DNA of 64,000 bases from Gammaproteobacteria bacterium (GTDB lineage Bacteria > Pseudomonadota > Gammaproteobacteria > Eutrophobiales > Eutrophobiaceae). The stretch lies in contig OZ241847.1 in the NCBI GenBank assembly GCA_965202915.1, positions 2,194,242 to 2,258,241 of the forward strand, written 5' to 3'. The position numbers and the translations under genes were made by a program. The notes under the pieces are model-generated. The model did not search any database, had not been told where the DNA came from, and worked only from the letters and a program-made list of their open reading frames with translations. Every line of letters starts with the position of its first letter. Within the stretch, counting starts at the first letter, position 1. Of the stretch, positions 1 through 22,294 are shown in pieces.

Positions 1-947
1 GCTGACGACAAGCCTTTTGCCAGGGTCATGGTATCGGGCTGAAAGCCAAACATGGTGGCACCAAAATCCTTGCCCGTTCGGCCAAACGCACAAATAACCT
101 CATCGTCAAGAAACAGGATATTATTATCCCGCAAAAGTCGTTGAACGCGTGGAAAGTAATCCCTGGGAGGCACTATTACGCCACCCGCGCCATTGATTGG
201 TTCAGCAATAAACGCAGCGATTGTCTCCGCTCCTTCGGTGTCGATTAATTCCTCAAGTTGATTGATCAGACGATCACAAAAAGCACTTTCCGACTCGCCA
301 TTTAAACCATTTCTATAGTAGTGAGGAGCATCTATGCGAAGTATGCCCAGAGCGTCGAATGGGAGATTAAAATGAGCATGATTTGCGGCCAGCCCGGTCA
401 GCGAAGCGGCGGCGACGGTCAATCCATGATAAGCATTATGTCGTGAAATAATTTTTCTTTTCTCAGGCGTACCCAGTATATGATTATAGTAACGCACAAT
501 TTTAACAAGTGAATCATTGGCATCGCTTCCTGAGTTGCCAAAAAATACCTTCGCCCCGCTGATATTCACCATTTCACTCAGTTTGTCAGCTAAATCAATG
601 CCCTCTTGATGTGTTTTCCCGCCAAATAAATGACTATAAGACAGGCGTTCCAGTTGCCCGGAGATGGCCTCTACCAGTTCCTCATTCCCATAGCCCAATG
701 AGGCGCACCATAATCCGGCCAGACCTTCTATGTACTTTTTCCCCTTATCGTCATATACATATATGCCCTTACCCTTAGAAAACTTTATTTGCTCCGGTGC
801 GCATAAATTAGTGCTTGGATATAAAACACTGCTCATTATATTGCTTTCCTCATATGAACAAAACCAATCGCGACGTTCAGACCAGCTTTCCGGTTTATTT
901 ATCTGTATTAAATTATAGTCATTTAATTCTTTATAAACCATCGACAT
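1..947 (-). CDS. Class III (PLP-dependent) aminotransferase; the 3' end of the gene lies outside the window
   Basis: Reverse-strand translation from the ATG complement at 945-947 gives MSMVYKELNDY... and ends ...DDEVICAFGRTGKDFGATMFGFQPDTMTLAKGLSS, typical of class III aminotransferases. The ORF track does not list it because it runs off the window edge. Confidence 0.75.
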   Translation of the reverse strand, partial: MSMVYKELNDYNLIQINKPESWSERRDWFCSYEESNIMSSVLYPSTNLCAPEQIKFSKGKGIYVYDDKGKKYIEGLAGLWCASLGYGNEELVEAISGQLERLSYSHLFGGKTHQEGIDLADKLSEMVNISGAKVFFGNSGSDANDSLVKIVRYYNHILGTPEKRKIISRHNAYHGLTVAAASLTGLAANHAHFNLPFDALGILRIDAPHYYRNGLNGESESAFCDRLINQLEELIDTEGAETIAAFIAEPINGAGGVIVPPRDYFPRVQRLLRDNNILFLDDEVICAFGRTGKDFGATMFGFQPDTMTLAKGLSS

Positions 948-1076
948 ATTTTCACTTAATCTGTGAATATATCTCACTGATGGCGTTCGCAATGTTTATC
1001 AGGTGGCTTGTTTAGCCTTAAAGCAGGCACAAACCCTTAGCCCACACAACCGCGCGACAGCCTTTATTCCGGGAGA

Positions 1077-1124
1077 AACATTGGCTGAACGCAACATTGG
1101 CTGAACGCAACATTGGCTCACGCC
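1077..1124. repeat. 16-bp direct tandem repeat (AACATTGGCTGAACGC, about 2.5-3 copies, last copy degenerate) upstream of the first TMTC-like gene
   Basis: Read directly: aacattggctgaacgc aacattggctgaacgc aacattggctcacgcc. Confidence 0.8.
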
Positions 1125-1259
1125 GGCATTTGCCACGCCACCCCCTATGCCTGGCGGCATACATACCGTTGACGCATCACCATGGGGTCATTAAAATATT
1201 CCCGTGTCGCACTACGGACTGGAATCTTCCCTCACACTTAATAATGAGAATCATCAAAA

Positions 1260-3146
1260 GTGAGTAGGCAATCAAATTTCAATGCCAGAAAACGCGGCAA
1301 CAGGAACCGACGCCGGCAAGCCAAATCGCAACCGGTTTCGCCAACAAGCTCAAAGCCATCAGCGACAATATCAGCAAGGGAAAGTATCCATATTACCCCG
1401 GCGCCGCACGGGCCGGAGTCACCCGTCTCCGCCGCGGCACCGGAAGCCGCCATCGCAACCGTATTCGCGCTGCCGGCACTATGCCTGTTAATCACCCTCA
1501 GTTACCTGCCCGCAACCTGGGCGGGGTTGGTGTGGGACGACGTCGTACTGACGATGGCCCAACCGTTGCAACATCTGTCCGGCCTATGGGATATCTGGTT
1601 CGCGCCCCGTTCCCTTTCCCAGTTTGAGGGACACTACTGGCCGCTTCTCTATACGTCTTTCTGGCTGGAGAATCGATTGTGGGGCGTCACCCCGGTCGGC
1701 TATCATATTGTCAACCTTGTACTACATGGCTTGGTCACAGTACTGCTATGGCGCCTGTTACTAAGGCTGGCCGTTCCCGGTGCCTGGTTTGCGGCGGCGG
1801 TGTTCGCGGTACATCCCCTGCACGTGGAGTCCGTGGCATGGATCATCGGACGCAAGGACGTGCTGGCCTCACTGTTTTATCTGGCCTGCGTGCTGAGTTA
1901 CCTGCATTTCATCGAGGCCCGGCGGCGCCGGTTTTATGCCGCGGCACTGGCACTGTTCATGGCGGGTCTGTTGTGCAAATCCATCCTGGTCACGCTGCCC
2001 GTATCGCTACTGATCTGGCACTGGTGGCAACAGGGGCGCGTGACGCCGGCCGACGTGCGCAGAGTGCTGCCGTTCCTGCTGCTGGGGCTGTGCGTCACGA
2101 TCGCCGACGTCTTGTTCTACAAGAGCAGGGATCCCACCGCCTTTGACTATTCAATCGTTGAACGGCTACTGATCGCGGCGCAGGCATTGTGGTTCTACCT
2201 GGGAAAACTGGTCTGGCCGACGCAACTGGCGGTCATTTACCCGCGCTGGGAGGTCGGCGTCGCCAACCCGCTGGCCTGGGGGTGTTTGATGGCCGCCTTC
2301 GCTGCGGTGGCGGCGCTGTGGTTCGGGCGCCACCGCATCGGTCGGGGGCCGCTGGCGGGTGCACTGTTCTTCGTGGTGACGCTGTCGCCGACGCTGGGCT
2401 TCGTGGACTATGGCTACATGCTGTACTCCTTTGTCGCCGACCGCTACCAATACTTGGCCGGGGCCGGTGTGATTGCAACACTGGCCGCAGCCGTAACCCT
2501 GGGCATGGGCAGACTGCCGGGCGCATACCGGCGCGGAGCGCAGGGCATGGCGGTGCTGCCGCTGGCCGCACTGGGCGTCATCACCTGGAACCAGGCGGGA
2601 ATCTACCGGGACAACTACACTTTTTACAGCCACGTCCTCTCTCTCAACCCGCAGGCCCGCTTCGCCCACCACAGTATCGGCCTGGAGTATCAAAAGCAGG
2701 GCCGCCACGAAGAGGCACTTGCCGCTTTTGAAACCGACTATCGTCTTGCCCCGGAGCAGCCGTCCCCACGGGTGCGCATGAGCAAGGCCCAGACCAGCAT
2801 CGGAACGTCGCTTGCGGCACTGGGCCGGATCCAGGAAGCGGAGGAGCACTTCCGGCGCGGGGTTGAGATCGCCCCGGACTTTCCGGGGGCCTACGATCAT
2901 CTGGGCGGGTTCCTGATCACGCACAAGCGTTACCGGGAGGCCCTCGAAGTTTTTCAAGCCGTCATCACCATAACGCCCGGCAATGCAAGGTTTCACGTCG
3001 GCCTGGGGGTCTCGCAGGCGGGCTTGGGACGGCTGGATGAGGCCTTGCAGAGCTACGAGCGGGCGCTGTTGATAGACCCCTTGCAGGAGCAGGCGCTAAG
3101 CAATCGCGCCAGCCTGTTGAAGTTCAGAGAGAGTGGCGGCGGATAG
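1260..3146 (+). CDS. GT-C fold glycosyltransferase, PMT_2/TMTC-like membrane domain fused to C-terminal TPR repeats (paralog A); probably a polyprenol-phosphate-sugar dependent mannosyltransferase
   Basis: 628 aa with multiple TM helices and the motifs LSYLPATWAGLVWDD and GHYWPLLYTSFWLE. The C-terminal third has TPR-like repeats (EALAAFE..., AYDHLGGFL..., EALQSYERALLIDP). About 75% identical over the membrane domain to ORF 9789..11648. Arg/Lys-rich N-terminal tail. Confidence 0.7.
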   Translation: MSRQSNFNARKRGNRNRRRQAKSQPVSPTSSKPSATISARESIHITPAPHGPESPVSAAAPEAAIATVFALPALCLLITLSYLPATWAGLVWDDVVLTMAQPLQHLSGLWDIWFAPRSLSQFEGHYWPLLYTSFWLENRLWGVTPVGYHIVNLVLHGLVTVLLWRLLLRLAVPGAWFAAAVFAVHPLHVESVAWIIGRKDVLASLFYLACVLSYLHFIEARRRRFYAAALALFMAGLLCKSILVTLPVSLLIWHWWQQGRVTPADVRRVLPFLLLGLCVTIADVLFYKSRDPTAFDYSIVERLLIAAQALWFYLGKLVWPTQLAVIYPRWEVGVANPLAWGCLMAAFAAVAALWFGRHRIGRGPLAGALFFVVTLSPTLGFVDYGYMLYSFVADRYQYLAGAGVIATLAAAVTLGMGRLPGAYRRGAQGMAVLPLAALGVITWNQAGIYRDNYTFYSHVLSLNPQARFAHHSIGLEYQKQGRHEEALAAFETDYRLAPEQPSPRVRMSKAQTSIGTSLAALGRIQEAEEHFRRGVEIAPDFPGAYDHLGGFLITHKRYREALEVFQAVITITPGNARFHVGLGVSQAGLGRLDEALQSYERALLIDPLQEQALSNRASLLKFRESGGG

Positions 3147-3391
3147 TGCTAAAGGGCTCAAGATAAATATATTCTGCGCGGCAAAGCGGGAACATCGGCC
3201 AATAACACCGAGGAAAGGCATCACACACCACAACCAGATCGTGGCCATTCACGCCGACCAAGAGCGAATGAACCGGCAGGTACTCACACCCCACCTCAAA
3301 AGACCAGTTGTCATTGAACGACATATTCAAGATTCCGATCTTACGATTCGGATGGTTTCGGTGATAATGGTGGGCAGGGGGGCAGGGTCAC

Positions 3392-3841
3392 TCATATTCT
3401 CTTTTGTGGCTTCTCCAGCATTTTTCCAAGCTGATTCAGTTTTCTGTTAAGAAGTTGCCCGTCTTTTAGCTGACATTCCCATATCCGCAATACTTTCCAT
3501 CCGTTGTTTTTAAGCGTCTTGTTTACCAGCCTGTCACGTTTCTTGTTGGCATATATTTTTTTAACCCAAAAATCTCTGTTGTTTTGGGGAACTTGGCCGT
3601 GCTTTGGGCAATCATGCCAGAAACATCCATCCATAAAGATCGCAAGCTTACTGTTTGGAAATACAATGTCTGGCTTGCCGAAAATCGGGTATCTGCGTCG
3701 CCATCCTATCACATGATTTCGCTTCAATATTTTAAGCAGTTTCCCTTCGGTTGATTTGTTTCCAGTAGAACGCACCTTACCCATAATCCATGAACGTTTT
3801 TCTTTTGAATAGACGTCAACCATTTTTCTTGACGTTGTCAA
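3392..3841 (-). CDS. vsr: Very-short-patch repair endonuclease (Vsr family); the start may be the internal MVDVY at 3823
   Basis: MVDVYSKEKRSWIM...FMDGCFWHDCPKHG...RDRLVNKTLKNNGWKVLRIWECQL matches the Vsr signature (FxDGCFWH ... GWxVLRxWE). Overlaps the upstream GHKL gene stop, so translationally coupled. Confidence 0.85.
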   Translation of the reverse strand: MTTSRKMVDVYSKEKRSWIMGKVRSTGNKSTEGKLLKILKRNHVIGWRRRYPIFGKPDIVFPNSKLAIFMDGCFWHDCPKHGQVPQNNRDFWVKKIYANKKRDRLVNKTLKNNGWKVLRIWECQLKDGQLLNRKLNQLGKMLEKPQKRI

Positions 3842-5477
3842 GCCTAAACAATAAAAATGAAATTAGACTTAGAATATCAAGGCAACTATTTTCTGGAAAT
3901 AATATATTTGATGTTGTCCTAGGTTCATGGTGCGTTGGATTTCTGAATGCTTGCACCAAACCAACTGAAAGAAATTGTTGACCCCTTTGCATGTTAAGTT
4001 CTGTGTCGTCGGAAAGGTCTGAAATTTGAAGTATTGGAAGCCTGGTTATTGTTGTTCTCCCTCTCTCGTTGTGTGATTCAAAACTAAAAGATTTATGCAT
4101 CAAATCAGTAGATGAATAATTAACACCAGCCTTATCTCTAATTTCCCTTTCATAAATCACCACTCCCTCTTTTGCAGCATCCAGATATCGGGCATTTTTA
4201 TAATCTTCGTACAGTCGATCCCTGATAAGCTGATGCAAATTTCTCCAATGATAATAAGGGTAAGAAGGTATAAGTTTTTTAAACTCGACAAACAGCCGAT
4301 TTGATTCAATAGTTTCTATTTCAGGAAAATCTTCAATCAGTTTTTCAGTAATAACCTCAATACTATTCTGAATTTCCTCCGGCATAGAATTTTTCCAGTC
4401 TTCCAGACCAATATCGCCAAGGCTGTTATCAACCTCGGCTATTTTCTTTTCTTTACGCTTTCTACGCCAATCCAATTGAACGAACTGGACACATTTCTCA
4501 AGATATGTATGAAGTTTGCTAGTTTGTAAATACCCCCAGTTTAGGTTTTGTCTGTTAGTGGAAATTACGTCCTCTGAAAAATCTTCTATAAAATCCACTT
4601 CCAACCATCCCGTCATATAAGAAAAGAAATGACTGGACGTGCTATCAGAAAATTGATAAGGAGATTGCACGAGTTTCCCCCGCGAAAACAAAGAAATACC
4701 CCTTGAATCAAATCTTGGTGCAATGGGCTTTTCAGGCGTAATGATCTTTCCCTGAATCTCAGACCGGTGCTCATAATCTGATTCTATGTTTGAAAAATCC
4801 TCGGGGAAATTCCAAGAAAATTCTTCACCAAATGCGGAGAAGTGCATATCATTGGACAACATTACCGGGTCTTCATCGTTACGCCTTACGGTAACGGAAA
4901 AATCTTCATCGAAAATAAAAAACCTTGCTATGCTGTTGGCAAGAAATTTTTCCGAAAAATCAGATTCTCTATTGATGTTTGTAAGTATTATTTGAGTTCC
5001 GGATTGACCATCTTCAACAATTTTGTCAATTACTTGCGGGATCATTAAATATTTCCCTCTCGTGGAGTTCATTAAATCATCCCAATCCATCGTAAAAATA
5101 TTTCTTTTTCCCTGTTGAACAGTGTTTACGGTAATTGTCCGAACAATCCCAAAGAATGAAAGCTTGCCCAAACCCTTTTTACCGATAACCTTCCTACCTC
5201 TCGGAGTCAACTCTTCTCCATCTTCTCTGCGGTTTCTCCCAATAACAAGAAATTTCTTGTCAATATCATTAAAAGACATTCCTGTTCCATTGTCCGTTAC
5301 AATAATTTCTTTTTCATTAATATCATTCAACTGCACTTCCACTTTTGTGGCATCTGCATCATATGCGTTGGCTAGCAGCTCACTTAAAACCGGAGGAAGA
5401 GTTGAGTACATACGAACTCCAAGGTGCTCTATAACTCTTGGGTCAAACTTCATCGTCAATTGATTAGATTCCAGCAT
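3816..5477 (-). CDS. GHKL-superfamily (HATPase_c_3 / MORC-MutL-like) ATPase protein, 553 aa, with a C-terminal domain of unknown function
   Basis: N box ELLANAYDADATKVEV, G1 box VTDNGTGMS and G2 box GKKGLGKLSFFG lie in the N-terminal 120 aa. The C-terminal roughly 400 aa match nothing I recognise. Low GC. Confidence 0.65.
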   Translation of the reverse strand: MLESNQLTMKFDPRVIEHLGVRMYSTLPPVLSELLANAYDADATKVEVQLNDINEKEIIVTDNGTGMSFNDIDKKFLVIGRNRREDGEELTPRGRKVIGKKGLGKLSFFGIVRTITVNTVQQGKRNIFTMDWDDLMNSTRGKYLMIPQVIDKIVEDGQSGTQIILTNINRESDFSEKFLANSIARFFIFDEDFSVTVRRNDEDPVMLSNDMHFSAFGEEFSWNFPEDFSNIESDYEHRSEIQGKIITPEKPIAPRFDSRGISLFSRGKLVQSPYQFSDSTSSHFFSYMTGWLEVDFIEDFSEDVISTNRQNLNWGYLQTSKLHTYLEKCVQFVQLDWRRKRKEKKIAEVDNSLGDIGLEDWKNSMPEEIQNSIEVITEKLIEDFPEIETIESNRLFVEFKKLIPSYPYYHWRNLHQLIRDRLYEDYKNARYLDAAKEGVVIYEREIRDKAGVNYSSTDLMHKSFSFESHNERGRTTITRLPILQISDLSDDTELNMQRGQQFLSVGLVQAFRNPTHHEPRTTSNILFPENSCLDILSLISFLLFRLDNVKKNG

Positions 5478-5489
5478 AATAAAACTATC

Positions 5490-6530
5490 TCAGCCCGAGT
5501 AAAAAGATTTCGCTATTCTGTAAGCAAGTTGCGGTGGCACTGCATTGCCTATTAGCTTGGCTGCGATCATTGAACTTTCACACGCAAAAACATAGTCTTC
5601 GCTGAACGTTTGTAGTGTTGCACCTTCTCTTAGGGACAATCCTCTGTTCTCCTCGGGATGGGCAAATCGACCATTTGAAATCCCGTTAAATCTCGTTGTA
5701 ATTGTTGAAGAGGGTTTATCCCACCTCAATCTCCCATAAACATCCCGAAAAGAATTATCTTTGCCTTTGTAGGTGTTCAATTGAAGCTCGGGGTCGTCTT
5801 TCCATGCGCTCCTTGTCCCGCCGTCTTTGGGTGTTAGCTTGAGCCGTCTCAAATTTTTTTCGGATAACGATGAAACTGTATCCATGAAATTATTTTCATC
5901 CTTATAACCGGATTGCAGAACGGGAAATCCATTATGGGTCCCTATAAATTCCTTCAATACGGATTCTTTCTCCGGTTGGGGAAGATCAATCGATTTTTTT
6001 ACCCTGGAAGCAATCAAGATAAATCTCTTTCTGCTTTGCGGAACTCCATAATACTTGGCATTGATAATATCCTCGACAATCTTATATTCTTTTTCAAGTT
6101 TCCGACAAAATTTGTCAAGCCCACTTTCCGCTTTGTTTCTTTTTATTCCCGGAACATTTTCTATAATTACATAACCCGGTTTGTAGTAACAGACAAAGCG
6201 CCAAAAATGATCAAGCAGTCCTCTGGTGTTCTCCGATGATCTTTTGTTCGTATTCAGGGTGGTCCAGTGCTGGCATGGGCTGCACCCTATAAAGATCAAA
6301 GAGTCGTCATTGCGTTTAATCCCACAATTTTTTTCCAGAAAAGTTCGTGGTGTGTCTTCTATATCTTTTAGAAAAAATTTTGTCCCCGGATGATTTGCCT
6401 CATATGTCTCTTTACAATCCTCATCCACATCTATCCCGGCAACAACCTTTACTCCGGCCATCTTTAACCCTTGGGACATGCCGCCGGCACCGCAAAAAAA
6501 ATCAACCGCTCTTAAGGATTTTTTTCTCAT
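5490..6530 (-). CDS. dcm: DNA (cytosine-5)-methyltransferase (Dcm family)
   Basis: Motif I DFFCGAGGMSQG, motif IV GCSPCQHWT (PCQ), motif VI ENVPG and motif X GNAVPPQLA. The ATGA overlap with the upstream gene indicates an operon. Confidence 0.9.
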   Translation of the reverse strand: MRKKSLRAVDFFCGAGGMSQGLKMAGVKVVAGIDVDEDCKETYEANHPGTKFFLKDIEDTPRTFLEKNCGIKRNDDSLIFIGCSPCQHWTTLNTNKRSSENTRGLLDHFWRFVCYYKPGYVIIENVPGIKRNKAESGLDKFCRKLEKEYKIVEDIINAKYYGVPQSRKRFILIASRVKKSIDLPQPEKESVLKEFIGTHNGFPVLQSGYKDENNFMDTVSSLSEKNLRRLKLTPKDGGTRSAWKDDPELQLNTYKGKDNSFRDVYGRLRWDKPSSTITTRFNGISNGRFAHPEENRGLSLREGATLQTFSEDYVFACESSMIAAKLIGNAVPPQLAYRIAKSFYSG

Positions 6531-8872
6531 TCGCCACCGCCCAAACTGGCTATTAATGTTACTATATGTGCCGCAACCGCGGACGAGGCAGCACGCACGA
6601 CAGAATCTTCGTCATATTCCTCCCGGCCATCGGAATTATCTTCGGAGTCACTGACAAGTCTCTTATACATTGCTAATGTGAGAATGCCCACCCCCACCCT
6701 GAAGCGGTGCCTGATGATCTCTCTCTTACCCTCATCTGATTCTTTGGAAATTAAGTACAAGAGATATTTATTGGCTTTGTTCACATATATGGTTAGCGTT
6801 TCTCCTCTGGACACATGACCGCCCGACTCTTCATTGTAGTTATGTTCATCCCAATATTCTTGCTCCACCCACTCAATATTCGGAAATTCCCGAGCCGGTC
6901 TCTCTTGATTGTTTGTGTCTGTTTCATCCCCGGGCGGGTTTCTTTGAGTTTCTTCCGCACTGGCAATTTTGATCATTACGTCAAAAGTCAGAGGATCTGT
7001 TCTTTCCGGGTTTGAGTCATCAAAGCCAAACTGAACGGCAATTTCATCTCCTACTTTTGCCCCCGCGGGAGTTATGACTTTTATTCGGAATTTTCCATTA
7101 CGCAGAGAACCCGAATGTGGCAATATATCAGGTGATGGGTGAATAAACTCCCCTCGGTTGGCATCTCTTATCAAATAATCATTTTGAGCGTCTGTTCTAC
7201 ATTCAATTCGTCTGTAAGAATTTATGGGAACACTCTTAACATTGCCCTCCTCCAAGTGCGTGGGAGTTAAATATGTGGGGAACAATTTCCCTTCATATTG
7301 ATCCTCACCTCCGGATGTTGCAATCTGACTGTCAACAATACTTCCAACATCAAATAGTTCTTGAAGATCCGGATTATCTTTAACAAGATTGGAAAGAAAT
7401 TCTTTATCGGTCTGCTCTTCTATTTGCTCGCTAATACGACGGTTTTTTATTTCTCTTGCATATTCCCTAAGTTCTCCGCTCCCGGCCAAGGCATCTATAA
7501 TAATTTTCTTTAGTTCTCTCGTGAGCCCTATGTCCGCCATTCTTTCCCTGTCCGATTTAAACACGGCGGCTCGCGCCGTATTATCCATGGCATTACAATC
7601 TATTTGAACAATTAAATGGTTTCTCAAATCATCCAGTCGCGCCTTCCGCAACAGACTGGCTCTGTCCGCAGATTGGGACTGACCGTTGATCGTGTAGAAC
7701 ATTCTGTATGGCTGTTTGCGCAAATAATCCTTCATTTTCTTCAACCCAAAATAAGATATTCGGATAGTCCCCAAATCCGAATTTTCAGAATTTTCAATTA
7801 CGTTTTCCAAGTCAACTTCGCTTTCCTCACTTCTTTCATCATCGGATTTGAGCACTATATTCATACCGGAAAAAGTTCTCGGTGCAATACCCTCCGCTCT
7901 AAGACCGCTCCTTGTGGGTTGAGCATCAAAATCATAAAGACGAACAGGCAAGGCACAATTTATAAGGTTGGTCGTAAGCGCATCATATAGTCCTATATCA
8001 ACCGCACGGGCACGAGGCCCTATATCGTATTCATATAACTTCACAATGCTGCCACCATTGATGACGACACCGATATCCTCTCTGCCAAAAGCCTTGATTT
8101 CATCGGTTTCAAAACAGGCAATTTCTCCGTCGGGACAAAAATACTCAACCACTGGCAAATCCTCTCCTTCTCGAACTCCTCTTACCCTTATCAAAGTCCA
8201 TCCCCATAGACCATCCGAACCGTAAGTGGTTCTTTTGGACAGAATAAACTTATACATCCCCGCCCTGATATCTGCTCGGGTACAAAAAGGTATGGATCCG
8301 GTGCTACCCATATTAAATCGACCTTGGACAAACGGAATGCCTTCCTTATTCTTTTCTCCAAGAGATAAAAAAGTTTTTCCAAAATCTGTATGATTTTGCC
8401 CCTCACCAAAATCAACTATCGTATAGTTTGGACAAATATCATTTCTCCTTCCTGTTCTCTTAATACCAATCAAAACACTTTTTTCAGCCAGATCAGTCCT
8501 TTGATTCGGGCTTAACAAAGCCAACCTGCCTTCTTGAACTTTGGGGAAAAAGTGTTTGACAGCCTCGCTCATATCTTGGGGAGCTGATTCACCATAAAAA
8601 TCTATTTGCTCTTCCTTTGCCCTGCGCATAAGGATTGCGTCAATGGAATTAATGATTAACTCTGCCAACGCACCGACTGGTTGGCTCGTTTGGACGCTCA
8701 CCCTGTCCCAATTTTTATCCGCGCCGCCGTAAGGCTTCCAATTTTCATCAGCGCTAAATTCAGGCTGGCTTTCCATGAACCGATTAACGTCGTCGGCTGA
8801 CAAAGCACCGAGAAACTTATTCGCTATTAACTTTGAAAGTGGGCTGTTGAAAAATTTTCTCGAATCATTCAT
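6527..8872 (-). CDS. Large (781 aa) protein with an N-terminal divergent GHKL ATPase-like domain and about 500 aa of unassigned C-terminal sequence; first gene of the island operon
   Basis: ALAELIINSIDA (N-box-like), IVDFGEGQ (G1-like DxGxG) and GRFNMGSTGS (G2-like GxFGxG). The remainder has no motifs I can assign. Its stop overlaps the dcm start. Confidence 0.5.
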   Translation of the reverse strand: MNDSRKFFNSPLSKLIANKFLGALSADDVNRFMESQPEFSADENWKPYGGADKNWDRVSVQTSQPVGALAELIINSIDAILMRRAKEEQIDFYGESAPQDMSEAVKHFFPKVQEGRLALLSPNQRTDLAEKSVLIGIKRTGRRNDICPNYTIVDFGEGQNHTDFGKTFLSLGEKNKEGIPFVQGRFNMGSTGSIPFCTRADIRAGMYKFILSKRTTYGSDGLWGWTLIRVRGVREGEDLPVVEYFCPDGEIACFETDEIKAFGREDIGVVINGGSIVKLYEYDIGPRARAVDIGLYDALTTNLINCALPVRLYDFDAQPTRSGLRAEGIAPRTFSGMNIVLKSDDERSEESEVDLENVIENSENSDLGTIRISYFGLKKMKDYLRKQPYRMFYTINGQSQSADRASLLRKARLDDLRNHLIVQIDCNAMDNTARAAVFKSDRERMADIGLTRELKKIIIDALAGSGELREYAREIKNRRISEQIEEQTDKEFLSNLVKDNPDLQELFDVGSIVDSQIATSGGEDQYEGKLFPTYLTPTHLEEGNVKSVPINSYRRIECRTDAQNDYLIRDANRGEFIHPSPDILPHSGSLRNGKFRIKVITPAGAKVGDEIAVQFGFDDSNPERTDPLTFDVMIKIASAEETQRNPPGDETDTNNQERPAREFPNIEWVEQEYWDEHNYNEESGGHVSRGETLTIYVNKANKYLLYLISKESDEGKREIIRHRFRVGVGILTLAMYKRLVSDSEDNSDGREEYDEDSVVRAASSAVAAHIVTLIASLGGGE

Positions 8873-8924
8873 TTATGAAAATTCACCTAGGTTTTGGTAT
8901 TTAATCAGTACATATCCATAACCG

Positions 8925-9560
8925 TTAAAAATCATTCCCGGAACCAAATGGCCACCCACTTGCGGAATAGGCCCGGATGTCATCATCGCCGGCATATTTG
9001 AACCAAAAAACCGCCGCCGGCACAACCGAACATTTGCCAAGCCGGCAGTTTTCCACCACCACCTTGAGCATGGCGTATTCGCCGTTGACTTGGCAGGCGA
9101 AAGCCAGCATATCGAATGCTACTTGATACGCCAAATGATGTCGAGTTTAATATATCCAGTTTGACCATTACGCATGTCGGTGATGTCGAGATCTTCACGC
9201 AGTGCTTTATCGCCATTGGTTAGGACCATTTTGTAACTGTATTTGTCGCCGCCCGCTAGAATCGCCGGACATACGGACTCCCCGAACCAAGAATGATAAC
9301 ATTAGCTCCCTCTACAATCCAGGTATTTCCCAACGCCTGTCCTTCCAGAACACCTATCGACCAAACCATCGGTTACTGACAGAACAACATCTACGGACGT
9401 GGCGACAGCGGTAATTGGGTTATCATGGAATCATCCGATTCACACCATCTCCAGAATATACGGGCGGCAGCATCGGACACTTCCTTGGGTATGTGTGCTA
9501 CCCGCACCTCCAATTAACACGGCCGAGTTGAGAATGTGAACCAAGTATTTCGTTGGTAAT
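8925..9560 (-). pseudogene. Degraded gene remnant of unknown family with multiple frameshifts, adjacent to the island
   Basis: Protein-like segments sit in three different minus-strand frames: ...VWSIGVLEGQALGNTWIVEGANVIILGSGSPYV..., ...KMVLTNGDKALREDLDITDMRNGQTGYIKLDIIW and AYQVAFDMLAFACQVNGEYAMLKVVVENCRLGKCSVVPAAVFWFKYAGDDD... They are separated by +1/-1 shifts and in-frame stops. Confidence 0.3.
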
Positions 9561-9671
9561 TACCCCACATCCTTCGACTTATCAGGTAATGAGACAAGAC
9601 TCGGCAAGGTTACGGGACTTCCCCGGTCACCGTCTGTGCACAATCTTATAATGCTTTTCTGCGAAAATTAT

Positions 9672-9710
9672 GAGGATTGTGTAAAATCCTCTCTTGTATA
9701 GGATTAGGAT
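9672..9710. promoter_or_regulatory. Perfect 7-bp inverted repeat GAGGATT-N6-AATCCTC followed by tandem AGGATTAGGAT, in the promoter region of TMTC-like paralog B; possible operator
   Basis: Read directly at 9672-9691 and 9700-9710; about 80 bp upstream of the 9789 start. Confidence 0.3.
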
Positions 9711-9788
9711 ACCCTCTTGCCACACTTCAGACTGAAATCTGCCTTCTCCTCAAGAAAGGAGTGGCGCAAGGTGAACAGATAATCGGAT

Positions 9789-11648
9789 ATGGCGGCCCGA
9801 AAAAACCGAAACAAGGCCCGGCGCAGGCAAATGAAGCTGCAAACCACCGCCAGGCGCCCCGGCACGGTGCGTAGCCGGACCGGCCCCGTACCCATCAAAT
9901 CGTCGCCGGGCGGGTTGCAATCGCTTTTTTCCGGGCTCAAGCGGAGCGTACTTCACGGGGACCCGATCCCACCCGCACTCGCGGCCACGGCGCTGTGGCT
10001 GCTGATACTCATCAGTTACCTGCCCGCGACCTGGGCCGGTTTCGTGTGGGACGACTTCGCGTTCACGGAGGCCGAACAGGTACTGCGCCCATCCGGTCTT
10101 TGGGATATCTGGTTCAAGCCGCACTCGCTGCAGAATGAAGGCCATTACTGGCCGCTCCTCTATACGACCTTCTGGCTGGAGCACAAGTTGTGGGGGCTGG
10201 ACCCGACCGGTTATCATATCGTCAACCTGCTGCTGCACGGGTTGACCACGCTGTTGTTGTGGCGCCTGCTGCTGCGGCTGGCCGTGCCGGGCGCCTGGTT
10301 CGCGGCGGCGGTGTTCGCCGTGCACCCCCTGCACGTGGAGTCGGTGGCATGGGTTATCGGACGCAAGGACGTGCTGGCGGGGCTGTTCTCCGTGGCCTGC
10401 GTGCTGAGCTATCTGCGTTTCGTGGAAGCTGGTCGCCGCGCACGCTATACGCACTACTTTCGGGCACTGGCGCTGTTCGTGGCGGGACTGTTGAGCAAAT
10501 CCATTGTCGTCACCCTGCCGGTGTCGCTGTTGATCTGGCACTGGTGGAAGCAGGGTCGCGTAGCCGTGACCGACGCACTGAGGACGCTGCCGTTCCTGCT
10601 GCTGGGGCTCGGCATCACGATCATCGACTGGTGGTACTACAAGGACCGGGAAGAGATTGTCCTGGAGGACTACTCGTTGATCGAGCAGACGCTGAACGCG
10701 GCGCACGCGCTGTGGTTCTACGTTGGCAAACTGGTCTGGCCGGCGGAACTGGCAGTCATCTACCCGCGCTGGGAAATCAACGTCAGCGAGCCACTGGCCT
10801 GGGCGTATCTGGTCACCGCCGTCGCGGTGGTGTGGCTGCTGTGGTTCTACCGCGACCGCATTGGCCGGGGGCCGCTGGCGGGGGTGCTGTTCTTCGTGGT
10901 GACGCTATCACCGACCCTGGGGTTCGTCGAGTACGGTTTCATGCAGTTCTCGCTGGTCGCCGACCGCTATCAGTACCTGGCCGGGATCGGAGTGACGGCG
11001 GGCCTCGTGGCCGCCGCGGCCCGCGTTGCAGGCCGGCTGTCGGGTACGCCGGCGAGGGGCGTACAGGCCGCGGCGGTGCTGCTGCTGGTCGTGCTGGGAA
11101 CCATCAGTTGGAACCAGGCGGGCATCTACCGCGACAACTTCACGTTCTACCAGCATATCATCGCTCTCAACCCGCAGGCCAGGAACGCCTGGTACAACCT
11201 TGGCAGAGAGTATTCCATGCAGGGCCGCACGCAGGATGCGCTGGCCGCGTATCTCACCGCCGGCGAGCAGCGCCCCGACCACGTCTGGGCGCATATCGGC
11301 GCCGGGCAGATGGCCGCGGAACTGGGAAGGCTCGCCGAGGCGGAGATGTACCTGCAACGCGCGCTTGCGGTTGACCCGAGTTTCCCGGAAGCCCTCAACA
11401 ATATGGGAGCGCTGCGGCTCAGACAAAAACGCTACAGCGAGGCGCTCGAACTCTTTGAGACCCTGATTGAGATGCAGCCCGAGTACGCCAAGGTTTATTC
11501 TGGCATAGGCGTGGCCCTGGCCGGACTCAGGCGGTTTGAAGAGGCGTTGCGGAGTTTTGACCGCGCGCTTGAACTGGACCCGTCACTGGAAGAGGCGCGG
11601 GTCAACCGCGAGCACGTATTGCGGAACTCCAAAAGCGAGAGCAGGTAA
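9789..11648 (+). CDS. GT-C fold glycosyltransferase, PMT_2/TMTC-like membrane domain fused to TPR repeats (paralog B)
   Basis: 619 aa with ISYLPATWAGFVWDD, GHYWPLLYTTFWLE and HPLHVESVAWVIGRKDVLAG. The C-terminal TPR-like repeats include NAWYNLGREYSMQGRTQDALAAY and EALNNMGALRLRQKRYSEALELFE. Very high GC. Its stop overlaps the start of the next gene (TAATG). Confidence 0.7.
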   Translation: MAARKNRNKARRRQMKLQTTARRPGTVRSRTGPVPIKSSPGGLQSLFSGLKRSVLHGDPIPPALAATALWLLILISYLPATWAGFVWDDFAFTEAEQVLRPSGLWDIWFKPHSLQNEGHYWPLLYTTFWLEHKLWGLDPTGYHIVNLLLHGLTTLLLWRLLLRLAVPGAWFAAAVFAVHPLHVESVAWVIGRKDVLAGLFSVACVLSYLRFVEAGRRARYTHYFRALALFVAGLLSKSIVVTLPVSLLIWHWWKQGRVAVTDALRTLPFLLLGLGITIIDWWYYKDREEIVLEDYSLIEQTLNAAHALWFYVGKLVWPAELAVIYPRWEINVSEPLAWAYLVTAVAVVWLLWFYRDRIGRGPLAGVLFFVVTLSPTLGFVEYGFMQFSLVADRYQYLAGIGVTAGLVAAAARVAGRLSGTPARGVQAAAVLLLVVLGTISWNQAGIYRDNFTFYQHIIALNPQARNAWYNLGREYSMQGRTQDALAAYLTAGEQRPDHVWAHIGAGQMAAELGRLAEAEMYLQRALAVDPSFPEALNNMGALRLRQKRYSEALELFETLIEMQPEYAKVYSGIGVALAGLRRFEEALRSFDRALELDPSLEEARVNREHVLRNSKSESR

Positions 11649-13414
11649 TGGCGAAACGGAAAAACCCCCGCCCCGCCACTCGCCGGCGCCGACAACCTGG
11701 GGCAGCGGCGCCGACAACGGCAACGATGCCCTGGCGGTGGCGCGCGGGCGACGCCTTATTTGCCGCCGACCGCCCGCGGCTCGCCGGCGACGGCGAACAC
11801 TGGACGTATTTCTGGCCGCTGCTGGGCGCGGCCCTGCTGCTGCGCGCTGCCATCGCCCTGTGGGGTGACTTTGTGCTGCATCCGGACGAGATCATGCAAT
11901 ACCTGGAGCCGGCCCACTATGTGGCCTTCGGCAATGGCGTCCTCTACTGGGAATATCTCCACGGCGCACGCAGCTGGCTGATCCCGGGCGCGATCGCCGG
12001 CGTGCTGAAGGCGCTGGATGGCTTGGGGCTGGCGCAGCCGGCCATCTATATCGCCGTGGTGAAACTGTTGTTCTGCCTGCTGTCGCTGTCGGTGCCGTGG
12101 GCCATGTACCGCTTCACGCAAATCACGGTCAACGAGCGATCTGCTCGGCTGGCGCTGATCTTCGGCTGCTTCTGGTACGAACTGGCGGCGCTGGCGCACA
12201 AACCCTTCACCGAATTGTTCAGCACTTCCATTTTCATGGTCGTGCTCGCTCTGTCCGTGGGCAGGGAAGCGGAAAGACCCGCCAGGCTGTTTGCCATCGG
12301 CCTGCTGGCGGCACTCAGCGGTGCGGTGCGCCTGCAGTACGCACCCGTGGCGTTGCTGCTGTTGTTGCTGCGCTCGGTATCCCTGCGCAACGGCGTTGCC
12401 GGGCTGGTGTCGTTATGGGCGGGCGCCGGGCTGCTGACGCTGCTAGTGGGTATCTTCGAATGGCAGACCTGGGGGGCGCCGTTTCATTCCTACCTGAGCA
12501 ACTTCTTTATCAATCTCGCCATTGACCCCGCACGCGCCGGTGAATCAAGCCGATGGCTTCTGTTGGGGCAGTTGGCCGCGGCCAGCGGCGGCATGGCACT
12601 GATCGCCTTTGCCGCTGCGCTGCCCAGGGGGCGGCGGCATCTGCTCATCCTGGTGACGAGCGCGGTGATACTCGTCCTGCACCTGCTCCCGGAGCATCGC
12701 GAATACCGCTTCATCCACGTCCTGATCCCGTGCTGGTTGATGCTGCTGGCGGCCTGGATCGCGCGCTGGGGCGACGGATTGTCCGGCGAACGAGGCCGGA
12801 TATCCGCACTGGCGCGGCGCTGGGGCGCGGCGGCGGTGCTGGCCTTCGGCATCCCAGCCCTACTCAATGCGTTTCCCTGGCAGAGCCGGGTGTACCAGAG
12901 TTTCTCCGTGGAAAAACCGGTGTACTACTTGCGCAATCAGGACCCGATATTTGAGATCATGTCTTTCCTGGCCGCCCAGGACGACGTGCACGGAGCTCTC
13001 TACCATACCCGGGAATACAACGCATACTTCAGCACTGGCGGCTATTACTACCTGCACCACGACGTCCCTTTCTATACCGCGCAAGACACCTGGCAAACCA
13101 TCAGGGAACGGCACCCGGCGGTGCCTCAGGAATCGTTGGTTTCCCATATCGTGACCGAGGCCGACGGCCCCGCCATCCAGGGGTTCGAACGACTGCTCCG
13201 GCGTGGAAACCTGGCGCTGTGGCGGCGCCGGGACAACGACAGTGCAGTCCCCCGCTGGCGCGAGCACGTGATCAAGGTAAGCCATGCGGACCTAAACGAC
13301 CTGGTGAGCAGAACCATGCGGCGCCTGAACGCCTCTTCCATGCTCGACCTTTTCGTAGCCGATGACTTGTACTGGGTGGAGGCGCCACCGTTGTTTGAGT
13401 CGGCGGATGAATAA
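11648..13414 (+). CDS. GT22-family (PigB/Alg9/Alg12-like) GT-C mannosyltransferase
   Basis: Loop-1 signature HPDEIMQYLEPAHYVAFGNGVLYWEYLHGARSW matches the GT22 consensus (PDEhWQslE...G.LTWEW..RLRSY). Multi-TM. Translationally coupled to paralog B. Arg-rich N-terminal tail. Confidence 0.6.
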   Translation: MAKRKNPRPATRRRRQPGAAAPTTATMPWRWRAGDALFAADRPRLAGDGEHWTYFWPLLGAALLLRAAIALWGDFVLHPDEIMQYLEPAHYVAFGNGVLYWEYLHGARSWLIPGAIAGVLKALDGLGLAQPAIYIAVVKLLFCLLSLSVPWAMYRFTQITVNERSARLALIFGCFWYELAALAHKPFTELFSTSIFMVVLALSVGREAERPARLFAIGLLAALSGAVRLQYAPVALLLLLLRSVSLRNGVAGLVSLWAGAGLLTLLVGIFEWQTWGAPFHSYLSNFFINLAIDPARAGESSRWLLLGQLAAASGGMALIAFAAALPRGRRHLLILVTSAVILVLHLLPEHREYRFIHVLIPCWLMLLAAWIARWGDGLSGERGRISALARRWGAAAVLAFGIPALLNAFPWQSRVYQSFSVEKPVYYLRNQDPIFEIMSFLAAQDDVHGALYHTREYNAYFSTGGYYYLHHDVPFYTAQDTWQTIRERHPAVPQESLVSHIVTEADGPAIQGFERLLRRGNLALWRRRDNDSAVPRWREHVIKVSHADLNDLVSRTMRRLNASSMLDLFVADDLYWVEAPPLFESADE

Positions 13415-13654
13415 AAGTTTGTGGTCACGATCTTACACGGGCAGCCCGATGCCGATACCGTTCGCAGGTGTGGCCCACCGGGCCAGGTGGTCGGCGATGC
13501 TTTCCGACCCCATGGAGCCCCGCGCGGCCCCGGAATAGTCTTCGCAACCGCTCATTGGTTTGCCGGCGACAATATGGCACACTCTCCGGCAGTTTGATTG
13601 TAATGTTGATCCTGTCTTTTGATTTGCTTTTTCATTGCTTTAGGAGGCCCGCCC

Positions 13655-14404
13655 ATGTCCAAAAACCTAAGCGACTTTTCAACCCTGAGCCTGGACTGCT
13701 ATGGCACACTCATTGACTGGGAGACTGGCATTTGGGACGCGCTACAGCCCCTGATCCGGCGATCCGGACGAGACGACGTCGTGCGCCGCCAAGGACTCGA
13801 GGCGTTCGCCCGATTTGAAAATGCCCGCGAAATGGAGACACCGGAGCTGCCCTACCCGGAGATTTTGCAACGAACCCACGCCGACGTGGCGGCCTACCTG
13901 GGAATGACCACCTCGGTGGAACTGGACCGCGAGTTTGCCTGCTCCATCGCCCACTGGCCGGCCTTTGCCGACACCGCCGACGCGCTGCGCCGCCTGCGGA
14001 AGCACTATAAACTGGTGATCCTGTCCAACGTCGACCGGGCCGGATTCGCCGCCTCGGCGACCAAGCTCGGCGTCGCCTTTGACGCCGCCTACACAGCGGA
14101 AGATATCCGCTCCTATAAACCCGCCGCCGCCAACTTCCACTACCTGATCGAACATCTCCAGGCCGATCTCGGCGTTAAGCGCGAAGCCATCCTGCACACC
14201 GCCCAGAGCCTGTTCCACGACCACGCACCGGCCAACGCCTTCGACCTCGCCAACGTCTGGATCGACCGCCAGGGGCTGTCGCATAGCGACAACTGGGGCG
14301 CCACCGCCAGGCTCGACAAGCGCCCCGACGTGGACTTCCTGTTCCCGACCCTGGCGGCGATGGCGGACGCAGTGGAAGGGGAGGTCGAGCCGCCCCAGGG
14401 TTGA
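13655..14404 (+). CDS. HAD-superfamily hydrolase, haloacid dehalogenase type II-like
   Basis: N-terminal LSLDCYGTLIDWE (DxYGTL nucleophile motif), ILSNVDRAG and a C-terminal WIDRQG block. AGGAGG lies 8 nt upstream of the ATG at 13655. Confidence 0.75.
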   Translation: MSKNLSDFSTLSLDCYGTLIDWETGIWDALQPLIRRSGRDDVVRRQGLEAFARFENAREMETPELPYPEILQRTHADVAAYLGMTTSVELDREFACSIAHWPAFADTADALRRLRKHYKLVILSNVDRAGFAASATKLGVAFDAAYTAEDIRSYKPAAANFHYLIEHLQADLGVKREAILHTAQSLFHDHAPANAFDLANVWIDRQGLSHSDNWGATARLDKRPDVDFLFPTLAAMADAVEGEVEPPQG

Positions 14405-14712
14405 AAGCGGTCATGCACTGTACCAGTTAAGGATATAAATCCAGTGGTGGGTCTGGTACCTGGCGTCGTTCCTGATTCCGCACTGATGGCGGGGCGGGGA
14501 GCAAGTGCACAGCAGGGGCCAGGACTGAACACTTCGGCAGTGGGTGCTGCCTGGCGTCTTGCTGGTTGTACAAACGCGCCGGTGCCACGTTGCTGGCGGT
14601 GCTGCTTCCCACCAATTGCGCCGCCGGGACATTTTTAATGAACTATGTCCACAAAAAATTCACTTGTCCGAGCGAAAGCTTTGTAGTGCCCGCCCTGGTG
14701 CGCGAGATTCAC

Positions 14713-15643
14713 TTACCCGTTCGCCATTGTGGAGACGGTCGTGTATCTGCGCGCGAGTGCCGCACGAGAGACACGGTGTTCGTCGACCAGTGGCGGGATT
14801 CCCCGATGTTGCCGTATTACTTGAGCGGTCAACTCATTTTCTGCTGCGGCCTGGGACACTACACCAGACTGCCCGGTGACCTTGTATAGGGTGATATCCT
14901 CGCGCACTTGCTCCAACAGATAGAATTCCATCCGGGCATGGTTGAAAGCGAAGCGATCTCCTGACCGGTTGTTGAACACCAGCTTGGAGAGCGCAATGTT
15001 GACGACTACCAGCGCGGCCAAAATTGTCAGTATCCAGTGATTAGACAGCCCTAGCCTGCAAACCACGGCAAACCCCTTGAGATGGGTCGGATTTCGACCC
15101 TGTGCGTAAACCAGCGTCAGCAGCAGAATCAAAAGAAAAAGCAGCACGTGTAAGGAATACACCTTCTGGATAATGGACTGCGACCAGAATAGCTTGGAAA
15201 ACCCGTAGGCGAAGCCGGCCATGTAGCCGCCGAGGCGGCCGCCCGTCAGGTGGACCGCCACCAGATATAGCACCGCGCAGGCCGCCGCGCCCAAAAGGGC
15301 GCTCAATATGTTGCCGGCCAGCGGGCGCGAAAGCAACGGCAGGTGGGCGAACGGGAAGCACAACATGCTGTACAGCGGGTAACCCGGCGGGTGCACTGGT
15401 TGGCCGTAGTGGCAAATCAGGTTGAAGATCGCTGCGTCTTCGTAGGTGACGACACGGGGCATCGTGGCCAGATATACGATAAAAAGCCCGGTAAACACGG
15501 CCAGAGGGGGGGCAGCCCTGTCCTTCGATGTTATCGCGTAATGAAAACAAGCTAACCGTAGCGGCGTTGCGCACCCTGTCTTGGGACTGGGGGCGCACCT
15601 TACCCGAACGGGTACGGTTTTTTCTTTTACTCTTTCTGCGCAT
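14713..15643 (-). pseudogene. Frameshifted and truncated DUF2723/TMEM260-like GT-C glycosyltransferase gene
   Basis: PRVVTYEDAAIFNLICHYGQPVHPPGYPLYSMLCF matches the DUF2723 N-terminal signature (GDsgEF...HPPGYPLY). The Arg/Lys-rich start MRRKSKRKNRTRSGKVRP is in a different frame (ORF 15041..15676). Total length is about 300 aa versus more than 600 aa expected, and the C-terminal part is low complexity. Confidence 0.5.
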
Positions 15644-15975
15644 GGTGCCTACCCAACTACAGTCCCTTTTTGGCAAATACTATCACGTCTGATGCTGTAC
15701 CCGCTCGAATCGGCTCGCCTGAACGGGAGGGCGGAATGATTGTAATGTCGACTATGATGTCGCGTGTTTCATCCGGGCGGTTTTGTTGAATCTCGTCTTT
15801 TATGATTTGTATGTCCAGCCGGATCAACGGTTTATTCAGGTCAAAGATTTTCGCCAATTGGTAGCAAACGTCGCCGTCAAAGAATAAATCTTTGCGGTCT
15901 GTCTCAACCTCATATTGGGGGTTATAATGGTCTTGAGTTCGTTTTGCTTGGCACAATCGTAATATTTACTCAGTA

Positions 15976-16266
15976 GTGGACCAATCCACCGCTGTTTTTT
16001 CTTTGATAATACTCTGCACTTTTTTGATTGGATATAGCGAGTTCAAGGATGTGTTTGACTCACTGCTAAAAGACAACCCTATCTTCCACATGTCCCGACA
16101 AGCGGCCCTATTCAACCAAAAACTGGCTGACACGTCCCCGCATCGGGGTTGGCTACCCAAATACAACGCCATCCGACCTCATAAAGGAGTTGGACTCAAA
16201 ACACCCGTATGGATTACTATCGATAACAACAAAATTTATACAATATGTGGTGGACCCCATACATAG
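15976..16266 (+). mobile_element. IS transposase C-terminal fragment (DDE integrase core end, IS3/IS481-like); remnant
   Basis: FNQKLADTSPHRGWLPKYNAIRPHKGVGLKTPVW matches the conserved W..YN..RPH..LG..TP tail of IS3/IS481 transposases. There is no intact upstream catalytic region. Confidence 0.5.
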
Positions 16267-21981: not shown

Positions 21982-22075
21982 GATAAATTGCCCGCAAACA
22001 TTGACCCCAAAAGCAATCCCGAACAGACCATGTATTCAATCCCACGGCCTTTAGCCGCGGTTCGGTAAATAAAAT

Positions 22076-22152
22076 TGGTAGCGGGGGCAGGATTTGAACC
22101 TGCGACCTTCGGGTTATGAGCCCGACGAGCTGCCAGACTGCTCCACCCCGCA
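22076..22152 (-). tRNA. metY: Initiator tRNA-fMet (anticodon CAT)
   Basis: The reverse complement reads GCGGGGTGGAGCAGTCTGGCAGCTCGTCGGGCTCATAACCCGAAGGTCGCAGGTTCAAATCCTGCCCCCGCTACCA. This is near-identical in pattern to E. coli tRNA-fMet, with the 5' C:A-type end, three G-C pairs in the anticodon stem and an encoded CCA. Confidence 0.85.
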
Positions 22153-22294
22153 CCGGACGGTCAAGTATAAAGGCCTGAGTTTATTTTTCAAGGGGGGCGT
22201 ATAAATCCGCAATATACGGATCAGTATGGGATAGACGGGGTTGTGGTTGCGATGTGCTCGGACAATAACCGTAGCCAGAGAGATATCGCCTCAA

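Follow-up and report, generated by a model that had tools for sequence, protein, structure and literature searches.

Here we asked how a low-GC block of DNA came to lie between two related genes of a gammaproteobacterial chromosome, and from what kind of locus it was derived. The window, the whole stretch of 64,000 nucleotides that was analyzed (contig OZ241847.1), carries two glycosyltransferase (GT) genes near its left end, GT_A (1260..3146, plus strand; 628 aa) and GT_B (9789..11648, plus strand; 619 aa). Both encode membrane glycosyltransferase-like proteins with C-terminal TPR repeats, and they form the left and right flanks of the site. BLASTP confirmed that the two are paralogs in the same orientation and that they share the identical blocks quoted in the original prediction, although their identity is lower than the roughly 75% given there, at 62% over 550 residues, 59% globally, and 68% between the nucleotide sequences. 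The intervening 6,642 bp (3147-9788) contain a restriction-modification (RM) cassette of four intact minus-strand genes together with fragments of the genes hemB and DUF971. We consider it probable that the cassette and these fragments of its former neighbors were inserted as one block into the spacer of an old gene pair. The case is clear but essentially ordinary: a defence cassette moved together with its neighbors' DNA.

The low-GC operon noted between the paralogs is indeed present. The cassette genes have a GC content of 0.37-0.44, compared with 0.62-0.64 for the GT genes (GT_A 0.621, GT_B 0.64) and about 0.505 for the genome background, measured on the rest of the window. Relative to that background the GT genes are high-GC outliers and the island is a low-GC outlier. 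The leftmost cassette gene encodes a 149-aa Vsr very-short-patch-repair endonuclease (3392..3841, minus strand) that matches TIGR00632 at 115.6 bits (cut-off 97.85), Pfam Vsr (E 3.3e-16), and the PADLOC Vsr model. Next to it, at 3816..5477 on the minus strand, is a gene for a 553-aa fusion of a GHKL (paraMORC-type) ATPase with a C-terminal Ymh/HEPN region, the architecture of R.NmeAIP. Its GHKL (Bergerat) domain is recognized by HATPase_c_3 (80.3 bits, cut-off 25) and its Ymh domain by both Hypoth_Ymh PF09509 (68.7 bits, cut-off 25) and TIGR02391 (65.4 bits, cut-off 39.45), with PADLOC returning REase_II, Aga_HEPN, and PD-Lambda-3_B matches. The third gene (5490..6530, minus strand; 346 aa) encodes a Dcm-type C5-cytosine DNA methyltransferase, matched by Pfam DNA_methylase (177.5 bits, cut-off 22), TIGR00675 (138.1 bits, cut-off 100.65), and PADLOC MTase_II (E 2.4e-85). 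The last, at 6527..8872 on the minus strand, encodes a 781-aa protein of no family, here called U781, with a predicted GHKL fold and a putative role as a restriction subunit.

By domain content, the insert is a low-GC paraMORC-type 5-methylcytosine (m5C) RM cassette of Vsr, GHKL/Ymh-HEPN, Dcm, and U781. As predicted from these profile matches, it has the C5-cytosine methyltransferase that defines a type II m5C RM system, along with a linked Vsr, a common though not required accessory of such systems. For the nuclease, the 553-aa protein only half-matches a restriction endonuclease (REase) model, and U781 has a GHKL fold without an identified nuclease motif. The biochemistry of the cassette can be predicted from domain content and the literature: Dcm would methylate host cytosines, Vsr would mend the T:G mismatches left by deamination of 5-methylcytosine, and U781, possibly with the second GHKL ATPase, would spend ATP to restrict unmethylated incoming DNA, with the HEPN domain acting as a back-up RNase.

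The origin of the block is indicated by other copies of the cassette. Its home context was found via close U781 homologs (68-74% identity). In two such loci, L080 (Arenicellales) and L081 (Poriferihabitaceae), the genes run adk-hemB-U781-Dcm-GHKL/Ymh-Vsr-DUF971-ubiE-SCP2-ubiB, with hemB and DUF971 intact and the cassette low in GC against flanks of 0.58-0.66. The window carries pieces of the same two neighbors at the two ends of its island. The frameshifted remnant that had been noticed at 8925-9560 is real and is the 3' two-thirds or so of hemB (porphobilinogen synthase/ALAD), the upstream neighbor of the cassette at the home locus, lying multiply frameshifted on the minus strand at 8925..~9590. 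The strongest match covers ALAD residues ~205-327 at 9265-8952 (E ~2e-14 against the intact ALAD of relatives). PDB entry 1w1z is matched at E 1.3e-5 and, on one fragment, Pfam ALAD at E 1.5e-4; farther outward, weak collinear matches continue to residue ~115-123 near 9566-9590. The relic ends ~52 bp from the start of U781, a distance that is 59-62 bp in L080/L081.

The original prediction overlooked a second gene relic, at the left junction. This is the 5' part of a GBBH-like_N/DUF971 gene (3165..3395, minus strand), the downstream neighbor of the cassette at the home locus, with frameshifts and a premature stop. In a tblastn search, residues 12-47 of the L080/L081 DUF971 protein aligned to 3348-3241 (55% identity; E 3.6e-8, or 1.5e-11 in a smaller search space). 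As in L080, its ATG overlaps the Vsr stop codon. Its outer limit at 3165 was taken from the start of the block that does not vary between strains, described below. Because L080 and L081 hold the cassette between intact hemB and DUF971, the window island is, by these sequence matches, the hemB|DUF971 cassette with truncated pieces of both neighbors. Since intact genes cannot derive from pseudogene fragments, the movement started at a hemB|DUF971-type locus and ended in the GT spacer.

Relic-flanked cassettes were also observed elsewhere. In L087 (Ca. Spongiihabitans) the cassette lies between aroA and hisD; its hemB fragment spans residues 233-334 (80% identity) and its DUF971 fragment residues 1-36 (83%). 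The copy in L090 occupies a fourth context, where the hemB fragment begins at residue ~115 and the DUF971 fragment covers residues 6-25. Two further loci, L091 and L079, carry the cassette without detectable relics, and no ALAD or DUF971 fragments were found at the loci of more distant U781 homologs. L087 and L091 also contain fragments read by eye: one encoding the PP-loop motif SGGRSSG upstream of the cassette at L087:5500-5680, and broken pieces resembling a GGKDS-type PP-loop protein at L091:4600-5000. These are possibly relics of other disrupted genes.

The junctions had been proposed as the place to look for integration scars. We found pseudogene relics of the cassette's former neighbors there instead. 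A repeat search over 3050-9850 gave no target-site duplication (TSD), att-like repeat, or other direct or inverted repeat beyond chance, and the longest word common to 3147-3260 and 9501-9788 is 7 nt, the modal value of 300 shuffles. Searches with Pfam, PADLOC, and NCBIfam found no integrase or transposase domain in the open reading frames (ORFs) of the island, and the sole tRNA of the window, at 22076-22152, is 12 kb away. The features of an integrase- or transposase-borne island are thus absent here. It could still be argued that a site-specific integrative element hit the spacer and that its scars have since eroded, given that the spacer is filled differently in several lineages and that a distant U781 homolog on a Hymenobacter plasmid adjoins a tyrosine recombinase. 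We regard this as very unlikely. No recombinase gene lies in or beside the island in the window or in L001, L004, L087, L090, L080, or L081; the junctions share no more repeats than expected by chance, and the site lacks a tRNA; both island ends are fragments of housekeeping genes, which is not expected of a self-contained element; and no terminal sequence past the relics is common to the ectopic copies.

The 18 nucleotides after the GT_A stop codon (3147..3164) are probably the left remainder of the original spacer: positions 3147 and 3164 differ between strains, as is typical of the flank but not of the island, and the stretch aligns loosely with the post-stop sequence of L004, L005, and L007. 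On the right, 9591..9788 between the hemB relic and GT_B is unassigned DNA that includes a hairpin and the region upstream of GT_B, with the last ~60 bp aligning with DNA upstream of the L004 B gene. The hairpin, at 9672-9691 (GAGGATTGTGTAAAATCCTC), has a perfect 7-bp stem and a terminator-like score on both strands; it could insulate the two divergent transcription units. No Rfam match was obtained at E<=0.1 over window 1-16000.

In the history that we favor, a ~6.4-kb piece of chromosome would have been copied from a hemB|DUF971-type locus into an A-B spacer of ~69 bp. We infer that it was joined by recombination needing no homology, with the cassette having no recombinase of its own. After insertion, both gene fragments would have decayed while the four cassette genes stayed intact.

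A different possibility is that hemB and DUF971 are the residents here, and that GT genes inserted on either side before the locus decayed. The relics have a native-like GC content (0.49-0.52 compared with 0.505), and it is the GT genes that are outliers. However, adk, ubiE, SCP2, and ubiB, which accompany hemB and DUF971 in L080, L081, and L086, are absent here. In addition, A, B, and the following gene are contiguous in relatives, and the relics are truncated at their outer ends, as for a fragment. Finally, hemB is normally essential, so its loss in place is unlikely. Taken together, this makes the resident-locus explanation highly improbable.

We then consider the age of the gene pair itself. 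The A and B orthologs of L005 and L007 lie exactly 69 bp apart and are followed by a GT22 gene, which represents the empty site. The original prediction took the pair to be recent and proposed checking whether a single TMTC-like gene occupies the locus in close relatives; both orthologs are present at the insert-free site. In a neighbor-joining tree, window A groups with the A-orthologs of L004, L005, L007, and L082 (70-74% identity) and window B with the B-orthologs of the same four (74-75%), while window A and window B share 59% identity on the tree alignment. Each copy is thus closer to its own orthologs (70-75%) than to its partner (59-62%). From the separate A and B ortholog clades and the insert-free pair in L005/L007, we conclude that the A/B duplication is older than these lineages, predates the insertion, and exists without any insert. 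Of the two origins first proposed for the locus, insertion of foreign DNA into a tandem gene pair agrees with this evidence, and a duplication seeded by the insertion does not.

The second origin would correspond to a long target duplication, with GT_A and GT_B as the two target copies. This mechanism is documented for RM systems (PMC2853133), and the flanks are homologous and in direct orientation, as it would require. We nevertheless hold it to be extremely improbable: the flanks are only 68% identical at the nucleotide level, they have separate orthologs in at least four other genomes, and the empty site, with the pair 69 bp apart in L005/L007, already holds both copies.

Among relatives, the A-B spacer was found in four states. 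It is empty in L005 and L007 (69 bp), contains three tandem copies of a ~255-bp dispersed repeat in L082 (862 bp), contains relics and an HNH_2 gene in L004 (1,398 bp), and holds the RM cassette with its relics in the window and L001 (6,642 bp). Between the pair in relatives there is therefore nothing, a repeat array, or relics of the same unit, rather than unrelated native DNA. The L004 spacer consists of a low-GC HNH_2 endonuclease gene, the first 31 U781 codons, a hemB relic homologous to that of the window, and a marginal DUF971 relic; it is the same outer frame with its interior replaced. The A-B spacer has been filled repeatedly, with differing cargo between the same flanks. Variable defence cargo between conserved flanking genes is the established concept of a defence hotspot. 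The A-B spacer resembles such hotspots in its four states, and the cargo of the hemB|DUF971 site varies as well; it differs in that the A-B flanks are not core housekeeping genes but a horizontally exchanged glycosyltransferase block. At the hemB|DUF971 site of L086, from the same genome as L005, positions 6042-7186 hold a 72-aa ORF and a 309-aa NmeDI_C-domain gene and no cassette. This site is also variable, and is a second variable defence spot.

The ~255-bp repeat (GC ~0.57) was observed in tandem at L082:7547-8408 and in intergenic regions at L080:2494-3160, 7211-7416, and 22052-22317 and at L081:2634-2812. It is possibly a symbiont element resembling miniature inverted-repeat transposable elements (MITEs) or repetitive extragenic palindromic (REP) sequences.

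The window and L001, a second strain from another metagenome, are collinear over window 1-14448, and a comparison of the two sets the island apart from its flanks. There are 160 differences in this region. Only one of them lies in the island (3165-9788, 6,624 bp), and 159 lie in the 7,824 bp of the immediate GT flanks (2.0%; binomial p 8e-56). In housekeeping DNA farther to the left, 27 differences occur over ~5,000 bp (0.54%). The strain-invariant block starts 18 bp past the GT_A stop codon and fades 130-680 bp into GT_B. Of the DNA compared, the GT genes change fastest and the island most slowly. In this species, the flanks show allelic diversity much older than the island-bearing haplotype, which may have recently spread between strains. 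Within the same comparison, the intergenic region upstream of GT_A (1069-1259) has 20 differences in 191 bp (10.5%), far above the neighboring regions. The synteny between the window and L001 (98.9% identical) stops abruptly at window 14448, just past a HAD hydrolase gene; beyond this breakpoint, L001:1-2080 has genes for an FAD-binding oxidase and an ECF sigma factor, neither of which is present anywhere in the 64-kb window.

Several observations weigh against the insertion of a relocated cassette as we have described it. The breakpoints are blurred by decay, and the outer third of the hemB relic rests on weak, collinear matches with E ~5. No close donor was found: the hemB relic is ~45-60% identical to any functional ALAD sampled (best 47-60%), and among the best 120 matches to the L081 ALAD there was no protein of this 2,489,980-bp chromosome. 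The DUF971 relic of L004 is marginal, with an E-value of 0.019 in a tiny search space. The relic shared by L004 and the window implies either that an old insertion was later removed by clean deletions or that one GT block passed its filled spacer to another. One of these two histories is needed because the L004 relic occupies the same site as that of the window while the closest GT relatives of L004 have an empty site; the L004 GT genes are 92-95% identical to those of the empty-site genomes and 74-78% identical to those of the window. The island ends are also heavily decayed, yet the island is nearly identical between strains. Lastly, recent transfer is not the only reading of the island's low divergence: the island could simply follow the clonal frame, to which island-free relatives have nothing to donate, and recombination would have raised the divergence of the flanks.

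The GT block itself appears, from its sequence distribution, to have been exchanged between co-resident symbionts. L005:10136-15572 and L007:10028-15461 share only a 5.4-kb A-B-GT22 block, at 98.5% nucleotide identity, and have unrelated 10-kb flanks. Both are complete chromosomes from one sponge metagenome (ERZ25070185) and carry the labels of different phyla, Poriferihabitaceae in one case and Nitrospirales in the other. The L004 copy of the block is ~95% identical, and that of the window exceeds the GC content of its genome by 12 points. Given this sharing across unrelated flanks and the GC anomaly, a nested history, an island within an island, is plausible: the cassette would have entered the A-B spacer in another genome and come here as a passenger of the horizontally moved GT block. 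L004, whose A-B spacer also contains relics of this unit, fits such a history, which would further explain why an old relic lies in a foreign block. Conversely, the relic GC of 0.49-0.52 fits this genome and not a high-GC donor, although AT-biased decay could mimic this, and the two strains differ far less in the island than in the GT genes, so that island and block have no single shared strain-level history. As the main alternative for where the insertion took place, we view arrival with the GT block as possible but somewhat unlikely.

The hemB fragment starts at a similar point in the window, in L090, and possibly in L004, which hints weakly at a single founding unit. A more active role for the fragments can also be imagined, in which the hemB fragment, cassette, and DUF971 fragment together make up a recombinase-less mobile RM module of sponge symbionts and the gene fragments are working parts. 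They would then serve as portable homology arms, directing homologous recombination into the hemB|DUF971 locus of a new gammaproteobacterial host, and might also supply the promoter of the operon; the ectopic copies of the window, L087, and L090, taken to share a hemB breakpoint near residue 115, would descend from one founding excision and have spread among co-resident symbionts. The hemB relic contains one sigma-70-like site on the correct strand (9144-9116), no more than shuffled sequences give. We consider such a module unlikely.

The cassette resembles RM neighborhoods that have been described before. Iyer, Abhiman & Aravind (2008, PMC2292703) described neighborhoods in which GHKL paraMORC proteins are encoded with cytosine methylases and Vsr endonucleases. 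Fusions of paraMORC and Ymh(HEPN) domains occur in RM neighborhoods and were proposed to be back-up RNases like PrrC/RloC (Anantharaman et al. 2013, PMC3710099), and the GHKL+Ymh architecture is that of the putative R.NmeAIP (Orlowski & Bujnicki 2008, PMC2441816). In agreement with these reports, the window has a GHKL ATPase gene beside a cytosine methyltransferase and Vsr, and the exact GHKL-Ymh architecture. It differs in having a second, more divergent GHKL-fold protein, U781, that lies outside the Pfam, NCBIfam, and PADLOC models. It is U781, in which no nuclease domain was identified, and not the Ymh fusion that stays with Dcm in distant relatives. Judged by its sequence, the cassette is of a kind of RM system (paraMORC m5C) that comparative genomics had predicted, with an extra unannotated GHKL-fold subunit.

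The 553-aa protein also has similarity to the BbrUII/HgiDII REases (NCBIfam NF050001), which are likewise paired with an m5C methyltransferase. Its N-terminal ~380 residues align to positions 2-397 of the model. However, it scores 224 bits against a cut-off of 550, and its C-terminal part is replaced by Ymh/HEPN, so it is not a member of this family.

RM complexes are known to be mobile and linked to genome rearrangement, in forms that include long target duplication, flanking inverted repeats, and an integrase with a tRNA (Furuta, Abe & Kobayashi 2010, PMC2853133). The window unit is like these in that an RM unit occurs at different sites, an empty site can be identified, and cargo is substituted at one locus. 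None of the listed forms applies to it, and it is instead marked by fragments of both former neighbors. This carrying along of both neighbors' fragments, seen at three sites, is its distinguishing feature. The locus records how an RM cassette without mobility genes moves from one hotspot to another, and provides direct evidence, at the sequence level, that defence genes of uncultured symbionts relocate illegitimately and take flanking DNA with them. Genomes of sponge symbionts have been reported as enriched in genes for RM and other defences (PMC5649159). A lesson for annotation is that apparent scars at the edge of an island can be pseudogene fragments that point to the island's origin.

U781 had no match to any Pfam, NCBIfam, or PADLOC family. 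The GHKL signal at the sequence level is weak (HATPase_c_3 E 0.11), and the motifs ELIINSIDA, DFGEGQ, and GRFNMGSTG, which are Bergerat-like, were read by eye. A search of its sequence against the PDB gave nothing meaningful, and the fold was revealed by the predicted structure alone. Using an AlphaFold model (AF2, from 40 homologs; pLDDT 74), Foldseek matched the GyrB 43K ATPase region, Hsp90, and TRAP1 in the PDB at E ~1e-6. The alignment to GyrB 43K spans ~450-480 columns and would take in the transducer domain, with low TM-scores of 0.16-0.26. The model predicts a GHKL ATPase and transducer fold followed by a beta-rich and helical C-terminal region.

The wider family comprises at least 351 homologs, all named hypothetical, and 508 or more loci in metagenomes. 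At 47% identity, just the U781+Dcm pair is retained. Among 85 more distant metagenomic or viral-contig loci, a Dcm homolog is present in 26, a Vsr homolog in 20, and the Ymh fusion in one. Because the U781+Dcm pair is kept in distant relatives and the Ymh fusion only rarely, U781 is the likely restriction partner of Dcm, with the Ymh fusion and Vsr as probable accessories. U781 therefore represents a widespread, unannotated GHKL-fold family with Dcm as its constant partner, and is a candidate new restriction subunit. A search for relatives on phages gave no match; distant relatives were found on eight plasmids (21-27% identity) and five IMG/VR contigs (25-30%). Two of the plasmid relatives, at 24-26% identity, are in L088 (NZ_CP110137.1) and L089 (NC_014731.1). 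The neighbors of the Hymenobacter plasmid relative are tyrosine recombinase, SIR2, DUF262, and PAPS-reductase-family genes, and a Halogeometricum relative neighbors a site-specific DNA methyltransferase gene. These plasmid neighborhoods are consistent with a defence role for the wider superfamily.

The flanking genes had been called TMTC-like. Their TPR architecture stands, with TPR families matching the C-terminal parts of both GT_A and GT_B strongly in profile searches. At the level of domain families, PMT_2 scores 23.4 bits on GT_A, under its cut-off of 26.1, and was not reported for GT_B, and PDB sequence matches of the GT genes are confined to the TPR regions, with no TMTC-specific domain match. 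A precomputed PF13231 assignment is present on many homologs of the GT_A/GT_B family. The likeness to TMTC is best described as an architectural analogy.

The third member of the conserved A-B-GT22 block (11648..13414, plus strand) is a gene of the GT22 (Alg9-like mannosyltransferase) family, with a match to Pfam Glyco_transf_22 at E 8.3e-26. It was considered as a third GT paralog and ruled out, as it is unrelated to A and B. A GT22 gene also directly follows the B ortholog in L004, L005, L007, and L010. To the left of GT_A is an aminotransferase gene (Aminotran_3 in L001/L002). The right side at 16-28 kb, with HIT, znuABC, a response regulator, tRNA-Met, ssb, and uvrA, looks like core genome.

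Our scan for GT homologs used one genome per species and returned 75 loci, all in sponge-symbiont metagenome-assembled genomes (MAGs) of many phyla. The search with GT_A gave nothing between 100% and 73% identity, with no close empty-site strain among the matches, and an exact-match scan of JGI metagenomes for the 3' end of GT_A gave no match. The TPR-glycosyltransferase family as a whole has more than 3,186 proteins at E<=1e-100 and, in the species-representative set, is confined to sponge-symbiont MAGs from at least eight phyla. Its genes are often in tandem, with four to six copies (L006; OY843588.1 in L009, L016, and L020). This pattern suggests horizontal spread and a link to symbiosis. 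Just to the right of the GT block, a TMEM260-like O-mannosyltransferase gene (14713-15498, minus strand) encodes 261 aa in the window and 747 aa in L004, with the shared part 79% identical, and is probably truncated at the edge of the block.

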